From Patescibacteria group bacterium (GTDB lineage: Bacteria > Patescibacteriota > Minisyncoccia > Phycocordibacterales > UBA9973), in NCBI GenBank assembly GCA_040384805.1, contig JAZKIP010000001.1:51981-115980 (forward strand): a stretch of DNA of 64,000 nt, given 5' to 3'. A program made the translations under genes and the position numbers. Under the pieces are notes generated by a model. It searched no databases. It was not told the origin of the DNA and saw only the letters and a program-made list of their open reading frames with translations. Positions 3,596 to 22,497 of this stretch are shown here, piece after piece (the first letter of the stretch is position 1; each line of letters opens with the position of its first letter).

Positions 3596-5098
3596 TTATT
3601 TACCAAAACTGATCTTGAAATCTTCAATTGCCTTCTTTAAACTTGCCTCGCTTCCATCTGTCCACATTTTCTTCTCGATAACATCCGTGTAGAAATCTTT
3701 TGCCTGTGCTTCGCTGTAATCAATGAGGCCTTGCTGGAATTCTCCGATACGGTCTACGGGAACATCGTCGAGATATCCTTTCACAAGAGCATAGAGAACG
3801 ACGACCTGATGTTCGGTCTTGACCGGTGAATACTGCGGCTGTTTGAGCATCTCAGTTGCGCGCTTGCCGCGTTCGAGCTGTCTCTTTGTCGATTCATCAA
3901 GATCAGAACCGAACTGGGAGAAAGCTTCGAGTTCGCGGAACTGGGCAAGGTCGAGCTTGAGCGTTCCCGCTACTTTCTTCATAGCTTTGATCTGGGCTGA
4001 TGATCCGACGCGGGAGACTGAGTTTCCGACATTCACAGCCGGGCGGATTCCCTTGTAGAAGAGATCGGTTTCGAGGAATATCTGTCCGTCGGTAATGGAG
4101 ATGACGTTGGTCGGAATATAGGCTGAAATGTCGCCTGCCTGTGTTTCGATGATCGGCAATGCCGTGATGGATCCTCCTCCGTATTCCTTGTTGCGTCGCG
4201 CGGCGCGCTCAAGCAAACGCGAGTGAAGATAGAAAACGTCTCCGGGGTATGCTTCGCGGCCCGGCGGACGGCGAAGAAGCAACGAGATCTCGCGATATGC
4301 CACAGCATGCTTGGAAAGATCATCGTAGACGATCAAGACATCCTTCCCCTGATCCATGAAGTATTCAGCAATTGAAACGCCCGCATATGGCGCGATGTAT
4401 GAAAGCGCTGCAGATTCCGATGCGCTAGCTGATACGATAACTGTATAGTCCATGGCGCCGCCTTCCCGAAGGCGAGTTTCAAGCTTGCGGAGTTTGGAAT
4501 CCTTCTGTCCGATCGAGACATAGACGCAGATCATATTTTCCCCTTTCTGGTTGAGAATAGCGTCGATGGCGATTGCAGTCTTGCCTGTCTGGCGGTCGCC
4601 GATGATGAGCTCGCGCTGTCCGCGGCCGATCGGGATAAGAGCATCGATGGCTTTGATACCGGTTGCAACAGGCTGGTCGACAGAGAGGCGTGTGACGACT
4701 CCCGGAGCGACTTTTTCAATCGGGTTTGTCTTGTTCGTCTTGATATCTCCCTTGCCGTCGATCGGCTGGCCAAGAGCATTGAGAACGCGGCCGATCTGAG
4801 CGTCCCCGACGGGAACTTCGAGGATTCGTCCTGTGGCTTTGACCTCGTCTCCTTCGCGGATCGTTGAAAAATCACCGAGGATAATGACGCCGACAGAATC
4901 TTCTTCGAGGTTAAGAGTCACGCCGATCTCGCCGCTCGGGAATGTGACCATTTCCGATGCCTTGATATCAGAGAGTCCCGAAATCTTGGCGATGCCGTCG
5001 AATACCTCAACGACATGGCCGATCTTCTCGGCTTTGGCATCAACCTGGAATTGTTCGATTTGCTTTCTTAAATTTTCTACGATTGTGTTTTTTGTCAT
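3596..5098 (-). CDS. atpA: F1 ATP synthase alpha subunit
   Basis: 500 aa; Walker A GDRQTGKT; conserved alpha-subunit architecture. Confidence 0.95.
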
Positions 5099-5099
5099 A

Positions 5100-5507
5100 T
5101 TAATTCCTGATTAAGTAATCTTCTAATTGAGTGATTCGGTGCTTCATTGTCATATCGATAATCTCGTCTCCTATCTGTATCTTCATTCCCCCGATATTGT
5201 TTTCATTAATGCTTATATCGAGATATATTTCTTTCATACCGTATCTTTCCTTTAATTGATTCTTTAGGTCTTCCTCCGTCTCTGTTGAGAGAGGCCGTGC
5301 AGTTTCTGCGCGAGCCCGGAGAACTCCTTCATCATGATCAATCAGTTCCTCGAGGCTCTTGAGAATCTCAGGGGCTTTCGAGAGCAGATGTCTCTTGCTC
5401 AAGAATTCAACGCCATTCGACAGGAAAATCTCAAGGTCTTTCCCTTCTTTCCCTTTTGATCCTTCGTATAATGCCTGCGCGGCGTTTTGTGTTGAAATTG
5501 CTGACAT
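5100..5507 (-). CDS. atpH: F1 ATP synthase delta subunit (OSCP), short form
   Basis: 135 aa; operon position between atpF and atpA; C-terminal ...[15 protein letters not shown]... resembles the delta C-terminus. Shorter than the usual ~180 aa. Confidence 0.7.
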
Positions 5508-5512
5508 ATGAA

Positions 5513-6004
5513 TTATGCGTTGCGAATATTTTTTACCTGTTTCTGATCAAAAGACGCATCTGCCTTATCTTCAAGTAATTTTTCTGTTGCGGCAACGACA
5601 AGGGTTATAATTTCCTTTTTCGCTTCCTCGATCATTTTGGCTTTTTCTCCTTCAAGAGCGTTTTTGCCGTCTGCGATCATTCGGTCAACGTCTACTTTTG
5701 CCTGTTCAAGCATCTCTGTCTTTTTTGCTTCGGCATCGCGCTTCCCTTCCTGGAATATTTCATGAGCTTCCGTTTTTGCCTGCACAACGATGGCATCATA
5801 TTCTTTCTTGGTATCTGCGAGAATCTTCGCGTTGCGCTTTGCATCTTCAAGACCGCCCTCGATGCGGCTCTGCCTTTCGCTCATTATTTTTTTAAGGGGC
5901 TTAAGCGCCAAAAAATATAAAATAACAAGGACAATGATAAAATTGATCGCTTGGGCGATAATGATTTTCCAGTCTATATGAAAAGTTGTAACGAATGATT
6001 CCAT
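5513..6004 (-). CDS. atpF: Fo ATP synthase subunit b
   Basis: 163 aa; single N-terminal TM followed by a long charged helix; operon position. Confidence 0.85.
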   Translation of the reverse strand: MESFVTTFHIDWKIIIAQAINFIIVLVILYFLALKPLKKIMSERQSRIEGGLEDAKRNAKILADTKKEYDAIVVQAKTEAHEIFQEGKRDAEAKKTEMLEQAKVDVDRMIADGKNALEGEKAKMIEEAKKEIITLVVAATEKLLEDKADASFDQKQVKNIRNA

Positions 6005-6106
6005 GCGGAGATAATAATTATGAATTAAAATTGCTAATACGAATTGAGCTTCTCACTCCTAGCCCCTAGTCGATAGAATACTAGTTGCCAGATGTAAAGA
6101 GCCGAA

Positions 6107-6349
<243 letters not shown>

Positions 6350-6371
6350 CTAATAATGGTTGACCTTGAAT

Positions 6372-7298
6372 TTAATGTGCTTCCGCCACGCGATGACTTT
6401 CCTTCGGATGCTCGTCGTGCTTCTCGTCATGGTCCTGGCTTGCCATCGTATAATAGACAAGGGTCAGAATAGCGAAGATGAATGCCTGGATCACACCGAC
6501 AAAGACTTCCAGAAGCAAAAATGGCGTCGGTACAAGATATGCCATGATTGCCGCCATTGCCGCTAAAAGCACTTCGCCGGCGAACACATTTCCGAAAAGA
6601 CGGAATGAAAGCGATGCGATCTTGGCCATTTCTCCAATAAGCTCCAGAAATCCGACAGCGAACATGATCGGAGCCGTTAAAAGGATTGTCGGATCTTTTC
6701 GGACTTTCGTGAAAATGCCTCCGAGCGCCTTTAGATTAACATATTTATTGATGGTTTTCCAGAGACCGATCGTGAATATTCCAAAGAGATTCGCTCCGAG
6801 AACGGACAGGACCGCAAGAGGCAATGTTCCGTTGATGTCGGCCGTTCCGCTTCGAATAAGGGGTATAAACGCTTTGCCATGTTCGGTTGTCTCAATAAAG
6901 CCGAATCCTCCGATTGGCAATATTCCCATCCAGTTATTAAGAAGCACGAAAAGAAAAACAGAGAACACGACTGGAAACGCCTTGTTGGTGATCCTGCGGT
7001 CGCCTGTGACTTGATCAGCGAGCGATTCCGCTCCTTCGATCACGAATTCGAAGAAATTCTGAATCCCCTTCGGTATTTGCTTGAGCTTGAAGCGCATGAT
7101 AACGGCAAAAATGACGAGAATTGCCACGACGATCCAACTTGTAAAAAGCGCATTAGTAACCGTAAAAGATCCGATATGTCCAATCGGTTCGGCATATAAT
7201 GTCGCTTCATGATGCGCTTCTTCGCTTTCGACATGGGTCGCCTCTGGTGCGCCGGTATCCATTATTTCATTTTCTACATGTTCTTGAACTTCTGCCAT
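6372..7298 (-). CDS. atpB: Fo ATP synthase subunit a with N- and C-terminal extensions
   Basis: 308 aa; polytopic; conserved Arg-containing helix (LSFRLFGNVFAGEVLL). Acidic/His-rich N-terminus (~40 aa) and His-rich C-terminal tail (DHDEKHDEHPKESH). Confidence 0.85.
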   Translation of the reverse strand: MAEVQEHVENEIMDTGAPEATHVESEEAHHEATLYAEPIGHIGSFTVTNALFTSWIVVAILVIFAVIMRFKLKQIPKGIQNFFEFVIEGAESLADQVTGDRRITNKAFPVVFSVFLFVLLNNWMGILPIGGFGFIETTEHGKAFIPLIRSGTADINGTLPLAVLSVLGANLFGIFTIGLWKTINKYVNLKALGGIFTKVRKDPTILLTAPIMFAVGFLELIGEMAKIASLSFRLFGNVFAGEVLLAAMAAIMAYLVPTPFLLLEVFVGVIQAFIFAILTLVYYTMASQDHDEKHDEHPKESHRVAEAH

Positions 7299-7301
7299 AT
7301 A

Positions 7302-7565
7302 TTATTTATTTTCTTGAATCTTTTTTGCTTTCTCTTCTTTTTCTATTTTACGAATATATCCGACAACATTTTTCCGTATTGAAAAAAGCGATATAAGGAA
7401 TGCAATTGCCGTAAGCCCCAGGAATATCCACGGTGCCGTGTCATATTTGCCATCGAGATATTTGCCGATACCAAGGGCCAGGATAACGGGGATGGCGATC
7501 GATCCGGAGACTTTCATGAATATGATGAGTCCGGGTTTCCACCAATTTTTGTTCTTGTCTTTCAT
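7302..7565 (-). CDS. AtpI/AtpZ-like small membrane protein preceding atpB
   Basis: 87 aa, two TM helices, first gene of the atp operon, 3 nt upstream of atpB. Confidence 0.5.
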   Translation of the reverse strand: MKDKNKNWWKPGLIIFMKVSGSIAIPVILALGIGKYLDGKYDTAPWIFLGLTAIAFLISLFSIRKNVVGYIRKIEKEEKAKKIQENK

Positions 7566-7592
7566 AAAAAGAAAACGGCCTTAGCCAGCCGC

Positions 7593-7621
7593 ACTATAGC
7601 AAAAAATTGCGATATTTTCAA
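7593..7621 (-). promoter_or_regulatory. candidate sigma70-type promoter for the atp operon (TTGAAA-17-TATAGT) within a 12-bp inverted repeat
   Basis: Minus strand TTGAAA (7621-7616), 17-nt spacer, TATAGT (7598-7593), about 30 nt upstream of the atpI-like ATG. The IR ctatagcaaaaa / tttttgctatag (7598-7609 / 7630-7641) also gives a mirror-image TTGCGA-17-TATAGT on the + strand facing the tRNAs. Confidence 0.45.
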
Positions 7622-7676
7622 GTTTTTGCTATAGTATTCCTACGTTTTAAGGTTTTTCAGTGCATACATCATTAAC

Positions 7677-7770
7677 GCGTGTGGAGTAGAGTGGTAGAAC
7701 CTGCCTACCGGCAAGGCAGGCGCTCGTCCTGATATAACAGGTACAATACGAATGGTTCGCTCGTTGAAAA
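7677..7770 (+). other. degenerate tRNA-like element (duplicate of the tRNA-Ile 5' half with a ~25-nt hairpin insertion)
   Basis: gcgtgtgGAgtAGagtggtagaac nearly matches the acceptor/D-arm of the downstream tRNA-Ile. Then comes an extra hairpin ctgcctaccggcaaggcag, then gtcctgatataacagg resembling the Ile anticodon arm. The T-arm and 3' acceptor are not recoverable. Confidence 0.3.
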
Positions 7771-7794
7771 TGAAATAAGATTAATTCTTTAAGT

Positions 7795-7866
7795 GCGTGT
7801 GTAGTTCAGTGGTAGAACGCTGTCCTGATAAGACAGAGGCCGAAAGTTCGATTCTTTCCACACGCA
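7795..7866 (+). tRNA. tRNA-Ile (anticodon GAT)
   Basis: Cloverleaf readable by eye: acceptor GCGTGTG/CACACGC, D-arm GTTC-AGTGGTA-GAAC, anticodon stem CTGTC/GACAG with loop CTGATAA, T-arm with TTCGATT, discriminator A, no encoded CCA. Confidence 0.85.
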
Positions 7867-7916
7867 CTTAGGGTGGTAGCTTATTTCATTTTGCAACTCA
7901 CTGCCATGTAGCCTTA

Positions 7917-7953
7917 AAACACAAAAGACCCTTGAGGGTCTTTTGTGTTTTAA
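7917..7953. terminator. bidirectional rho-independent terminator
   Basis: aaaacacaaaagaccc-ttga-gggtcttttgtgtttt is a perfect 16-bp stem flanked by A/T runs on both strands; it lies between the tRNA-Ile and the convergent repeat-protein gene. Confidence 0.8.
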
Positions 7954-7974
7954 AATATATATTTAAAAGATCAC

Positions 7975-8405
7975 TTAATTTAATCGATTAATGTCCGTAA
8001 TGATAGATCCAGATTTCTTAACAGGATTTCCTTCTTCATCAAGTTGATTACCAAAACGATCTACTATTTTGCTGGTATTAACAATCGGCGTGCCGCTTGT
8101 ATCAAGCTCATTGCCATAAGGATCTAATAGCTTTTCTTTCTTAACTAATATTCCGCCTGCGTTGATCTCGTACTCATTGCCCAACTTGTCGAGTATCTTT
8201 TTGTCAGGCGAGCCGACAGGCTTGCCATCGGGCCCATATTCCTGACCGAATTGATTTACAAGCGTATTTTTTTAACTAATATTCCACCTGAACTGGTGTC
8301 ATAGGTATTACCTGCTTTGTCTATTATTTTTTTATCTTGAGCGATAGGCTTGCCATCGGGACCAAGTTTATTTCCATCCGGACCTACTATTTTTTCAAAA
8401 TTCAT
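7975..8405 (-). pseudogene. secreted-looking repeat protein (three ~45-aa G-P/N-D-G-K repeats) interrupted by a frameshift at an A7 tract
   Basis: 5' part (8405->8255) encodes MNFEKIVGPDGNKLGPDGKPIAQDKKIIDKAGNTYDTSSGGILVKKIRL*. Adding one A to the A7 run (+ strand T7 at 8267-8273) restores a continuous frame ...GGILVKKNTLVNQFGQEYGPDGKPVGSPDKKILDKLGNEYEINAGGILVKKEKLLDPYGNELD... running into the 69-aa ORF 7975..8184. Confidence 0.5.
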
Positions 8406-8448
8406 AATTAAAATTATATCATTTTTGATCTCATTGTGTCAATAAAAC

Positions 8449-8477
8449 AAAAATACTCCCTTTAAAGGGAGTATTTT
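8449..8477. terminator. rho-independent terminator after the RRM-protein gene
   Basis: aaaatactccc-tttaaa-gggagtattttt hairpin flanked by T/A runs, about 22 nt downstream of the 8499 stop. Confidence 0.7.
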
Positions 8478-8498
8478 TGGATAGAGTAAGCCGATATA

Positions 8499-8792
8499 TT
8501 ATCGGTTTGGGCGGAAACCACCGCCACCTGACTGTGGACGAGCTTCCATAGGACGAGCTTCGTTCACAGTAAGATTTCGACCTTCGAAATCTTTACCGTC
8601 AAACATTGAGATAGCTGTGTCAGCATCTGCATCGTTTTCCATTTCAACGAAACCGAAGCCCTTTGAGCGGCCAGTCATCTTATCCATGATAATAGTTGCT
8701 GATGCTACAGGACCTGCAGCCTCAAAGTGAGCTTTGAGCTCGTCGTTAGTAGTCTTGTAAGGAAGACCGCCAACATATAACTTTTTTGCCAT
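8499..8792 (-). CDS. RNA-binding protein with a single RRM domain and Gly-rich tail
   Basis: MAKKLYVGGLPYKTT...KGFGFVEM (RNP2/RNP1 motifs), C-terminal GGGGFRPNR. Start trimmed to the MAKK Met; the ORF-track N-extension is probably non-coding. Confidence 0.8.
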   Translation of the reverse strand: MAKKLYVGGLPYKTTNDELKAHFEAAGPVASATIIMDKMTGRSKGFGFVEMENDADADTAISMFDGKDFEGRNLTVNEARPMEARPQSGGGGFRPNR

Positions 8793-8998
8793 ATATGACA
8801 ATGTGCTTCTCGTAAACGTACTTTCATACGAATGCGTGAAGAAAACTAATTTATAAATGTAATCGCGTAGCCGATTTTCATTTACATGCCTCAATGTTTA
8901 CACAGCGAAGTATGAAACAAATACCAAAACGTAAGCAAACTACTGAAGGAAAGTATACCACATATATGTCGACCACACAACCAAATTTTAATTAAAAA

Positions 8999-9034: not shown

Positions 9035-9271
9035 CTATTCTTCAACTCCTATACTATTGATAAGTTTCTGTATTTCTTTATATCGTCTTTTTATTCTGAT
9101 TTCCAATAAGAAATAGATAATATAAAATATAACGCCGATAATGCATATGATAAAACCGATTACCATAAAGCTCCTTTCTTTATTGAAAAAAACCAAAAAT
9201 ATGAAGATAGTACTTGAAGCTAGAGAAATAGATGTTAATATGAACAGAATAGTGCTTATTTTCTTTTCCAT
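9035..9271 (-). CDS. small two-TM membrane protein (hypothetical)
   Basis: 78 aa, strongly hydrophobic, AT-rich; has its own downstream hairpin. Confidence 0.35.
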   Translation of the reverse strand: MEKKISTILFILTSISLASSTIFIFLVFFNKERSFMVIGFIICIIGVIFYIIYFLLEIRIKRRYKEIQKLINSIGVEE

Positions 9272-9399
9272 ATAGCAAGGTATTGTTTAATGAGCGAAAA
9301 AGACTTAACAGTTCTTCTTTGCTCATTAAACAAAACTTCTCATCTCTAAACTAAGATTAACTTGGTTTTATTTTAACATACAGTACATAAAAGGTCAAG

Positions 9400-10470
9400 T
9401 TATTCTGGGTTGATAGTGCATATTTTATTAGCAATGTATTTAGCATCCCGGGAAATTCCCGCCAAATGAGACGAGCTTTTACTGTATTGCCAGCGGATGT
9501 TAAGAACATAGAGCCCTTTTATATTTGTTACTCCTCTTGTATGCAAATCCGGATCAAAATCAGGAATATCTATAATGGAAAAATCCGATTTATATCCTGT
9601 GGCCCATATAACGACGGAAACTTCCCCCACATTTCCTTTCTCCGATAGTATTTTTCCTTCTGGCGTTATGCCGGTTATCCGGCCTACTGAAATGACATTT
9701 TCATTATTCAAAAGCATGCCGACATCCATACCCACAGCTTTGCCTTTCGTATACCACCGGACAAGCTTACCCAAAAGCGATTTCTGGGGAATATGGGCAA
9801 GGCCAAGGCGGTATGCCATCCATTGCGAGAGTTGAGAGCTTGGAACGCTTTTCAATTTTCCTTTGTATGAAAAGAATATCTGCCGCCCTGTTTCAATGAG
9901 CTCTTTGGCGATTTCCGAGCCTGAGTTACCTCCGCCGACAACAAGAACCGTGCCCGGAAGCAGTTCTCTTTCATTTTTGTATTGTTTTGCGTGAAGTTGA
10001 TGGATGTCTTTTGGAAGATTGGATGCATAGAAAGGTATAGATGGAGTGTTGAATGGTCCCGTCGCAAGAACAACGGCAGACGATTCATATATGCCATTGT
10101 TCGTTATTGTTATAAACAGATCACCTTCTTTTTGAATTGATAGCACGAGAGTATCAAAGACAGGCGTAATTCCGAATGTATCTGCAAATGATTTTAAATA
10201 TTCTGCAACTTCGTTTTTATGCGGCTGCCGTTTCTGATCTCCCGGAAAAGGAAAGCCTTCAAGATGGCTGTATTTGGCGAATGAATCGATAATAAGTGAG
10301 TCGTATCGATTTATCCACGAAGCCCCGATTTGTTTTTCCTGATCGAGGATGATATATGTTCCTCCTTTCTCTTTTAGATAACGGGCAACCGAAAGTCCTG
10401 CCTGGCCTGCGCCGATTATGATCGTGCCTGTGACAGCTGTCGGTTCCATATTATTCCTCATCTGCGTCAC
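9400..10470 (-). CDS. FAD/NAD(P)-binding oxidoreductase (flavin monooxygenase / pyridine nucleotide-disulfide oxidoreductase-like)
   Basis: 356 aa; N-terminal dinucleotide fold GxGxxG ([13 protein letters not shown]) and a second [14 protein letters not shown] Rossmann motif. Confidence 0.7.
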
Positions 10471-11389
10471 CGACCACTCCTGAAGAGAGAGCTTCTATGA
10501 TCCTGTCGATAGTGCCCTCCATGATGCCCGGAATATTGGACCACGACTGCTTAATGCGGTGATCTGTGACGCGATCCTGGGGAAAATTATAGGTACGGAT
10601 CTTTTCGCTTCTATCGGCTGTGCCGATCTGGGCTTTGCGGTCTCCGGAATATTTCTTCGCTTCCTCTTCGTCTTTGAGCATCTGGAGTTTGGAAAGAAGG
10701 ATCGACATGGCCTTTTCGCGGTTGCCAAGCTGGCTTCGCTCGCTTGTTGAGCGCACATCGATGCCGGTCGGCTTGTGTATCAAGCGCACGGCAGTTTCGA
10801 CTTTGTTGACATTCTGGCCTCCTGCGCCGCCCGAGCGAGAGTACTCCATATCGAGATCAGCGGGATTGATCTCAATCTTGCTTTTCTTGCGGATCGGAAG
10901 GATGGCAACGGATGCTGTCGATGTATGAATGCGTCCGTTCTTCTCGGTTGCCGGAACCCGCTGGACGCGATGAACTCCCGTTTCGTAGCGAAGAAGCTTG
11001 TAGACGTCTTTACCTTTGACTTCGAGCGTGTATTCATCAAGATGCTTGCTCTGCCATCCGCGGTTATCCGAATAGCGTTCGTACATGGCGACAAGTTCAA
11101 GGGCAAAAAGCGCCGCCTCGTCGCCTCCCGCCCCCGCCCGGACTTCAAGAACGATCTCATTAGGGAATTCCTCTTCTTCTTTATCGCCTTTCATGATCTC
11201 TTCGAGCTGCCGTTCGATAGCCTCCTTTTGAAAGCGGATATTTTGGAGTTCTTCGTCGGCTAAATCACGAAGGCTTTCATCCTGCGTGACCATATCAGTG
11301 ACTTTCTTTTCCTCGCTTTCGAGGCGTTCGTATTCCTCGGCAAAGTAGCTTGTTTTATGATTTTTTTTAAGTTCGTTGAGATCAAGCAT
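10451..11389 (-). CDS. prfA: peptide chain release factor 1
   Basis: 312 aa; GGQ motif ([18 protein letters not shown]); RF1-type PAT tripeptide (RVQRVPATE); C-terminal [17 protein letters not shown]-terminally shorter than E. coli RF1. Confidence 0.85.
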
Positions 11390-21720: not shown

Positions 21721-22497
21721 ATGATTGCATTTTATAAATACCACGGCGCGGGAAACGACTTTATCATGATCGACAATCGGAATTGTCTTTTCGATCCGAC
21801 TGATACTGAGCGTATAAAGCTGATGTGTCATCGTCGCTTTGGAATGGGAGCAGACGGAATATTGTTGCTTCAAGACGCTCCGGGGTACGATTTCGGCATG
21901 GTCTATATCAATTCAGACGGGAGTATCGGATCGATGTGCGGCAACGGCGGCAGATGCATCGTTCATTTTGCGCATCATGTCTTGAGCATTATAAAAGACC
22001 CGGCAAAAGTTGTATTCGAAGCTGTAGACGGAGTTCATCATGCAGAAATAAAAGACGACGAAGTCAGATTAAAAATGAGAGACATTAAGGAAATCGGAAT
22101 ACGCAACGATCTTCCCTTCATCCGTCAGGGCACGACTCCTCATAATATTTTATTAGTTGAAGACCTCAAGGAATATCCGGTTTTTGAGACAGGCCGCACG
22201 ATAAGAAAAAGCGATCCTGACGGGGTCAATGTGAACTTCGTGCAAGAAATCGATGGTGTGTTCCATGTTCGTACATATGAGCGTGGGGTCGAGGACGAGA
22301 CATGGGCCTGCGGGACGGGAGCGACATCGGTTGCCATCGCAGTTCACGATATGGGCCTTTTAAAAGAAAATATATGCCGCATTACAATGCCGGGCGGCGA
22401 TCTTACTGTTGAATTTGAAAAAATGTCGGACGGAACATATCAGAATATATGGCTCACCGGATCGGCAAAATGCGTGTTTAAAGGAGAATGGGAATAA
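21721..22497 (+). CDS. dapF: diaminopimelate epimerase
   Basis: 258 aa; N-terminal YHGAGNDF motif and second catalytic Cys region (WACGTGATS). TATAAT about 10 nt upstream. Confidence 0.85.
   Translation: MIAFYKYHGAGNDFIMIDNRNCLFDPTDTERIKLMCHRRFGMGADGILLLQDAPGYDFGMVYINSDGSIGSMCGNGGRCIVHFAHHVLSIIKDPAKVVFEAVDGVHHAEIKDDEVRLKMRDIKEIGIRNDLPFIRQGTTPHNILLVEDLKEYPVFETGRTIRKSDPDGVNVNFVQEIDGVFHVRTYERGVEDETWACGTGATSVAIAVHDMGLLKENICRITMPGGDLTVEFEKMSDGTYQNIWLTGSAKCVFKGEWE

Follow-up and report, generated by a model that had tools for sequence, protein, structure and literature searches.

An orphan three-repeat gene interrupted at an A7 run beside tRNA-Ile in a Patescibacteria genome

The locus described here lies in a window of 64,000 nucleotides (the whole stretch of DNA that was analyzed, to which all coordinates refer) from the genome of an uncultured member of the Patescibacteria. 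The closest relatives by AtpB (ATP synthase subunit a) are Paceibacteria/Nomurabacteria-type MAGs, the best of them at 81% identity. A repeat-protein gene occupies positions 7975-8405 of the minus strand, forming a single 431-nt insert between the gene for an RRM protein and the gene for tRNA-Ile. Its G+C content is 38.5%, compared with 44.6% for the window. In the NCBI annotation this gene appears as two hypothetical proteins: V4665_00400 (MES2930233.1, here P0002; 8256-8405, minus strand), with 49 codons and a stop, comprising repeat 1 and then the out-of-register residues IRL, and V4665_00395 (MES2930232.1, here P0001; 7975-8184, minus strand), a 69-aa ORF with a TTG start within repeat 2. 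The tRNA-Ile(GAU) gene (7795-7867, plus strand; Rfam tRNA, 76 bits) faces the repeat gene in convergent orientation. An RNA gene instead of an ORF was rejected, the tRNA-Ile being the only Rfam match above threshold in 7500-8900.

The repeat gene is equipped with its own expression signals. A sigma-70-type promoter at 8413-8442 (minus strand) combines TTGACA (8442-8437), an 18-nt spacer, an extended -10 TG, and TATAAT (8418-8413); it matches the consensus at 12 of 12 positions and is the sole perfect site in 7550-8900. The promoter ends 7 nt 5' of the ATG at 8405, with no Shine-Dalgarno (SD) motif, and from this spacing the mRNA would be leaderless or nearly so. The same promoter-ATG spacing is found for other genes of the window. 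In many of them a TATAAT-like box precedes the ATG by 7-14 nt, as seen for the genes ending at 11389, 18995, 21590, 37595, and 49612 and for those starting at 21721 and 41439, and even a loose SD motif accompanies only 11 of the 61 start codons examined. This suggests that leaderless or very short-leader mRNAs are widespread in this Patescibacteria genome. The upstream RRM-protein gene ends in a terminator hairpin with a perfect 16-bp stem (8448-8479, minus strand), which sets the repeat gene apart as a transcription unit of its own. At the other end, a hairpin of 19 perfect base pairs (7914-7953), whose arms are U-rich on either strand, is predicted to act as a bidirectional intrinsic terminator for the repeat gene on the minus strand and tRNA-Ile on the plus strand. 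The preliminary description had the repeat gene lying directly after tRNA-Ile and its terminator; instead, the two genes converge and the hairpin is common to both.

The upstream reading frame opens at ATG 8405 on the minus strand and continues for 49 codons (MNFEK...GGILVKKIRL) to a TAA stop at 8258-8256; it is translated as MNFEKIVGPDGNKLGPDGKPIAQDKKIIDKAGNTYDTSSGGILVKKIRL. The downstream frame, which is -1 relative to the start codon, extends over 7975-8271 (minus strand) with 98 codons and a stop at 7977-7975, and encodes repeats 2 and 3 and a C-terminal tail. Between them lies an A7 run (T7 on the plus strand) at 8267-8273 of the minus strand, read as GTT AAA AAA ATA three codons 5' of the 0-frame stop. 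In the -1 frame, a TAA at 8274-8272 overlaps the first two A's of the run. Because of this stop and the 0-frame stop at 8258-8256, the frame change is confined to the 13 nt of 8259-8271, where the A7 run is the only slippery element. The junction between repeats 1 and 2, measured from the conserved GTT codon to the conserved GGT codon, is 26 nt long, compared with 27 nt for the junction between repeats 2 and 3. One added A yields a single product of 143 aa with the junction stretch GGILVKKNTLVNQFGQEYGPDGK, in agreement with the earlier proposal that one inserted A restores a frame of about this length. The lesion had also been called a +1 frameshift; this has to be corrected, as the DNA is one base short and a ribosome would need a -1 shift. 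A second A7 run of the gene, at 8327-8333, is in frame and harmless.

The repaired protein contains three repeats of 43-45 aa (~44 aa), all encoded on the minus strand. Repeat 1 (8268-8396) covers residues 4-46, EKIVGPDGNKLGPDGKPIAQDKKIIDKAGNTYDTSSGGILVKK; repeat 2 (8137-8267) covers residues 47-90, NTLVNQFGQEYGPDGKPVGSPDKKILDKLGNEYEINAGGILVKK; and repeat 3 (7996-8136), the most divergent, covers residues 91 to about 136, EKLLDPYGNELDTSGTPIVNTSKIVDRFGNQLDEEGNPVKKSGSII. Repeats 1 and 2 are identical at 24 of 43 residues, including GPDGKP and GGILVKK, and repeat 3 has GNPVKK in place of GGILVKK. Each repeat is made up of two half-units of ~22 aa, and autocorrelation of the sequence peaks at lags 21-22, 44, and 65-66.

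Several lines of evidence connect the two frames. BLASTP pairs the upstream peptide with the translation of the downstream frame at 57% identity across 42 residues (E = 6e-14) and gives a second match to repeat 3 (E = 2e-8). At the DNA level the repeats are spaced by 131 and 128 nt, both equal to 2 modulo 3, and hence homologous codons occupy different frames on either side of the A7 run. Codon usage was scored with a model trained on 37 long genes of the window, whose mean is 0.377 bits per codon. In the upstream segment, frame 0 had log-odds of +18.3 bits over 46 codons (0.40 per codon); in the downstream segment, the -1 frame had +36.6 bits over 97 codons (0.38 per codon), with no internal stop. 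The other four combinations of frame and segment had negative log-odds and 6-11 stops each. Between the repeat copies, pS was 0.66, 0.61, and 0.75 versus pN of 0.27, 0.38, and 0.44, the pair of repeats 1 and 2 having 0.66/0.27. With pS well above pN, the repeats diverged under protein-level selection, which acted on frame 0 in the upstream part and on frame -1 in the downstream part. Both halves are genuine coding sequence and were once continuous. BLASTP, codon usage, and repeat spacings thus agree with the original description of one repeat-protein gene broken at or beside the A7 run, where a single base is missing, and the locus is confirmed as a single gene, recently or still. As in a pseudogene, the frame is disrupted relative to an intact reference, which here is provided by the internal repeats. 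No further decay (extra stops, indels, or relaxed codon usage) was found in the 97 downstream codons, where the frame is open and codon usage is native. The annotated pair V4665_00395 and V4665_00400 is best treated as a single frameshifted gene, a correction of value chiefly for annotation.

The repaired protein has a mass of 15.4 kDa, a pI of 5.5, and a GRAVY of -0.70. It is rich in Gly, Lys (18 of 143 residues), Asn, Asp, and Ile; Cys, His, and Trp are absent. A hydropathy scan, used here rather than a dedicated signal-peptide predictor, detected neither a hydrophobic N-terminus nor a membrane segment (the Kyte-Doolittle 19-residue maximum is 0.16), and therefore gave no hint of Sec-dependent export or membrane anchoring. 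The surface or secreted protein considered in the preliminary description thereby loses its main support. If intact, the gene would yield a hydrophilic, soluble protein of 15 kDa comprising ~6.5 short 'hhDxxGNxh-DxxGxPh' units of the beta-hairpin type, arranged as three ~44-aa repeats; the beta-hairpin-type fold is a prediction from this residue pattern. The single-sequence AlphaFold model, with a mean pLDDT of 53, is unreliable, contains only short strands, and is too poor for a fold search.

The repaired protein had no match in Pfam or NCBIfam, even at E up to 10; PHROGs yielded only noise, as did sequence matches to the PDB (E 0.04 or worse). A HMMER scan of 1.84 billion representatives returned the two halves of the protein itself, together with a handful of large proteins, mostly of eukaryotic appearance, that contain periodic 'hhDxxG(R/N)xh' repeats. 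One of them is the eukaryotic protein P0003 (phmmer E 1e-20; BLASTP E 8e-9; 29% identity over about 125 residues), whose repeats pass the Pfam RHS_repeat cut-off, and four weak matches (P0004, P0005, P0008, and P0009) carry DUF3659. The window protein resembles YD/RHS repeats (PF05593, and the two-copy unit TIGR01643) and DUF3659 (PF12396) in its period of ~21-22 aa, its D-x-x-G turns, and their aliphatic flanks. Unlike YD repeats, it has no conserved Tyr-Asp, and unlike RHS proteins, it is only 143 aa long and has no toxin, shell, or anchor domains. Assignment to YD/RHS (PF05593, TIGR01643) was rejected, the sole link being indirect, through P0003; assignment to DUF3659 (PF12396) was rejected as well, as there was no Pfam match. 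A periodic composition, and not common ancestry, may underlie the YD-like similarity.

Word-indexed protein searches for orthologues with the repaired protein and with a three-repeat profile returned only its own halves or nothing, the full HMMER scan of the 1.84 billion representatives contained no orthologue, and peptide-pattern scans of genome, metagenome, and viral contigs found no other copy. No homologue was detected by tblastn, phmmer, or the repeat HMM in six-frame translations of 150 syntenic loci, 70 of them from species-representative genomes and 80 from metagenomes; the best match, in locus L033 at E 0.65, was dismissed as an unrelated coiled-coil protein. Judging from these searches, the repeat gene is an orphan, known only from this genome. 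Its sequence is present in one assembly (n = 1) in the databases searched, and an exact-product look-up with both halves and the neighbor genes found no independent assembly on record. An independent short-read contig of 3217 bp (L001, Logan SRR26324625) is 100% identical to window positions 4607-7823, so the same organism is present in that run; this contig breaks within tRNA-Ile, short of the repeat gene.

The gene occupies a variable slot in an otherwise conserved neighborhood. In relatives, the gene order is release factor, RRM protein, tRNA-Ile, atpZ, and atpB. Among the 42 genomes with both markers, the spacer between the RRM gene and tRNA-Ile has a median of 158 nt; it is at most 250 nt in 33 genomes and 640-1400 nt in nine. 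In the window it is 631 nt. In eight of the nine long-spacer relatives, those for which ORFs are listed, the slot ORFs are unrelated to the repeat gene. The accessory-locus position postulated in the preliminary description is thus upheld by a spacer that varies among relatives and, where long, carries unrelated ORFs. Two relatives contain similar ORFs in this slot (L012, 8270-8953, and L016, 8601-9389), both beginning ...FLVYYFENPIFVIMNK and sharing EDYYYD/EDHYYD and EWE(K/I)SKKTKIP; hence the slot can host gene families common to some species. Insertion of a tRNA-targeted integrative island or another mobile element was considered and rejected, with no flanking direct repeats and no integrase. 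A tRNA-like remnant located nearby is present also in relatives without the repeat gene.

The interpretation that we favor, with a probability of about 0.5, is a recent one-base slippage deletion (A8 to A7) in a dispensable orphan accessory gene. The Lys-Lys-Asn codons at the junction of repeats 1 and 2 would need A8 where A7 is found, and replication slippage would have removed one A recently. Translation from ATG 8405 would then end at 49 residues, and repeats 2 and 3 would remain unmade, save for rare unprogrammed slips. The result would be a newly arisen allele, null or truncated, of an accessory gene that the organism can do without; reversion is possible in principle. The lesion is read as recent because the 97 downstream codons contain no other lesion. 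However, an intact gene would account equally well for the lack of further decay. The alternative is an error in assembly or consensus: the organism would have A8, and with it an unbroken 143-aa gene, and an A would have dropped out while this metagenome-assembled genome (MAG) was sequenced, assembled, or polished. Among residual errors, those in homopolymer length are the most frequent. The native codon usage in both frames and the otherwise undamaged gene agree with such an error, and the sequence comes from a single assembly, the independent Logan contig stopping before the gene. On the other hand, intact ORFs of the same 64 kb contain another 22 runs of 7-9 bases, four of them 8 and one 9 bases long, which implies a low error rate per run and makes a systematic homopolymer error unlikely. 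Coding sequence makes up ~92% of the window, where no second gene is visibly split; among the suspicious-looking overlapping ORFs, the pairs that were checked belong to different families. By our estimate, a random error would fall in the orphan gene in only about 2 cases in 24. A real mutation is favored, since the only broken run belongs to the only gene that is clearly a dispensable orphan. On these grounds the missing base is probably a true mutation, and probably a recent one, and an assembly error, although a serious alternative, is on balance unlikely. These two, the recent pseudogene and the assembly error, were both named in the preliminary description and are the leading explanations. 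A deletion at the A7 run would resemble authentic-frameshift pseudogenes, in which an ORF is split by a one-base change at a mononucleotide run and the halves remain recognizable. Unlike in the usual cases of this kind, it is the internal repeats, not intact orthologues, that attest to a single gene, and unlike decayed frameshift pseudogenes, the repeat gene has no further decay, so that the frameshift may be very recent or not real. If real, it provides an example of accessory-gene turnover in the variable slot beside tRNA-Ile in the very small genomes of Patescibacteria.

Other explanations assign a function to the interrupted state. The locus might be a phase-variation (contingency) locus, where the tract is kept as a hypermutable A7/A8 on/off switch for the three-repeat protein, as the preliminary description suggested. 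As in the surface and restriction-modification contingency genes of Neisseria, Haemophilus, and Campylobacter, a coding homopolymer sets the reading frame of an accessory gene: the A7 run falls in the 13-nt interval of frame change, the OFF allele is otherwise undamaged, and the gene resides in a variable slot. Unlike in those loci, the run is short for an A/T switch and is no longer than the genomic background, as the 22 other runs of 7-9 bases demonstrate, and the product, having no signal peptide or membrane anchor by the hydropathy scan, does not look surface-exposed. The run is accounted for as a by-product of the AAA AAA codons for Lys-Lys in a Lys-rich, A/T-rich gene, the second A7 being in frame, and no second allele was present in any database searched. 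A switch is therefore decidedly unlikely. We know of no described phase-variable gene in the Candidate Phyla Radiation (CPR), and a literature search on Patescibacteria, frameshift, and homopolymer found no paper. A7/A8 heterogeneity, if it existed, would make this a candidate phase-variable CPR gene; nothing in the present data points that way. A further alternative is programmed recoding, by which a -1 slip of the ribosome on A_AAA or the addition of an A by RNA polymerase would give both 49-aa and 143-aa products. It is exactly within the run that the -1 frame becomes open, three codons later the 0 frame reaches its stop, the tetramer A_AAA is present in frame, and an SD-like AGGUG ends 11 nt upstream of the run. 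In E. coli dnaX, an SD-like element at a spacing of ~11 nt stimulates -1 shifting. The A-rich slip site, the upstream element, and the pairing of a short 0-frame product with a long trans-frame product are all reminiscent of dnaX and the IS3 family. Unlike in these systems, the in-frame heptamer, U_AAA_AAA followed by AUA, does not conform to the canonical X_XXY_YYZ, and there is no structure 5-9 nt downstream: the sole predicted hairpin starts 20 nt past the run, and its fold is no better than that of shuffled sequences (z = -1.62). The 3' end of 16S rRNA lies outside the window, and a stimulator of the SD type is doubtful because SD motifs are rare here (11 of 61 genes). In bacteria, efficient transcriptional slippage typically takes an A or T run of nine or more nucleotides. 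Selection against transcriptional slippage is usually evident at runs of nine in many genomes (PMC1088944). The present run, with 7 nt, is below nine, and the genome tolerates A8 and A9 in ORFs. As there is also no orthologue to show conservation, programmed recoding is very unlikely. The broader claim that the A7 run is a genuine site of recoding or A7/A8 switching on a leaderless mRNA, yielding a 49-aa one-repeat product and a 143-aa three-repeat product of a previously undescribed beta-hairpin repeat family in a Patescibacteria symbiont, is likewise quite unlikely. Finally, the NCBI pipeline called both ORFs, as expected for two separate functional small genes of 49 and 69 aa. However, the 69-aa ORF (V4665_00395) starts at a TTG in the middle of repeat 2, leaving upstream of its start 29 codons of well-conserved repeat with native codon usage, and it has no SD motif and no promoter-like site of its own at 8185-8260 (minus strand). 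Because of this internal TTG and the lack of signals, the 69-aa ORF is probably a gene-calling by-product of the frameshift, and the existence of two functional genes is extremely unlikely.

Additional features lie around the repeat gene. Upstream of tRNA-Ile, at 7683-7793 (plus strand), there is a degenerate partial copy of tRNA-Ile, with the acceptor and D arm followed by the anticodon-arm-like CTCGTCCTGATATAACAGG; in the window this remnant is interrupted by a 22-nt hairpin, CTGCCTACCGGCAAGGCAGGCG. ARAGORN and Rfam called no tRNA at 7683-7793. The block that follows the remnant, GGTTCGCTCGTT.AAAATGAAATAAGATTAATTCTTT, is nearly invariant in the relatives L002, L025, L032, and L038, which share only 66-81% AtpB identity. 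The region may be an old tandem tRNA relic together with the tRNA promoter. In the window, the whole tRNA-Ile cassette (remnant, tRNA, and terminator; 7676-7953) has an inverted orientation with respect to the atp operon. This inversion is also observed in 7 of 42 scorable relatives and in L003, which has no RRM match (L003, L005, L008, L019, L022, L031, L034, and L042), and the tRNA is co-oriented with atpZ/atpB in the other 35 of 42.

On the opposite side, two extra genes are located between the release-factor and RRM genes (9035-10470, minus strand). One of them (9400-10470) encodes a 356-aa flavin monooxygenase-like oxidoreductase with a GTG start and overlaps the release-factor gene by 20 nt. 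The other (9035-9271), at 26% G+C, encodes an orphan of 78 aa that contains two hydrophobic segments. In the 70 genome loci, neither gene had a homologue within 6 kb of atpB, and the pair is apparently a second lineage-specific insertion beside the repeat gene. The release-factor gene itself (10451-11389, minus strand) is of class I and encodes only 312 aa with PCRF and RF-1 domains, and its match to the PCRF profile begins at position 30 of that profile. This gene, too, is preceded by a TATAAT, 14 nt 5' of its ATG.
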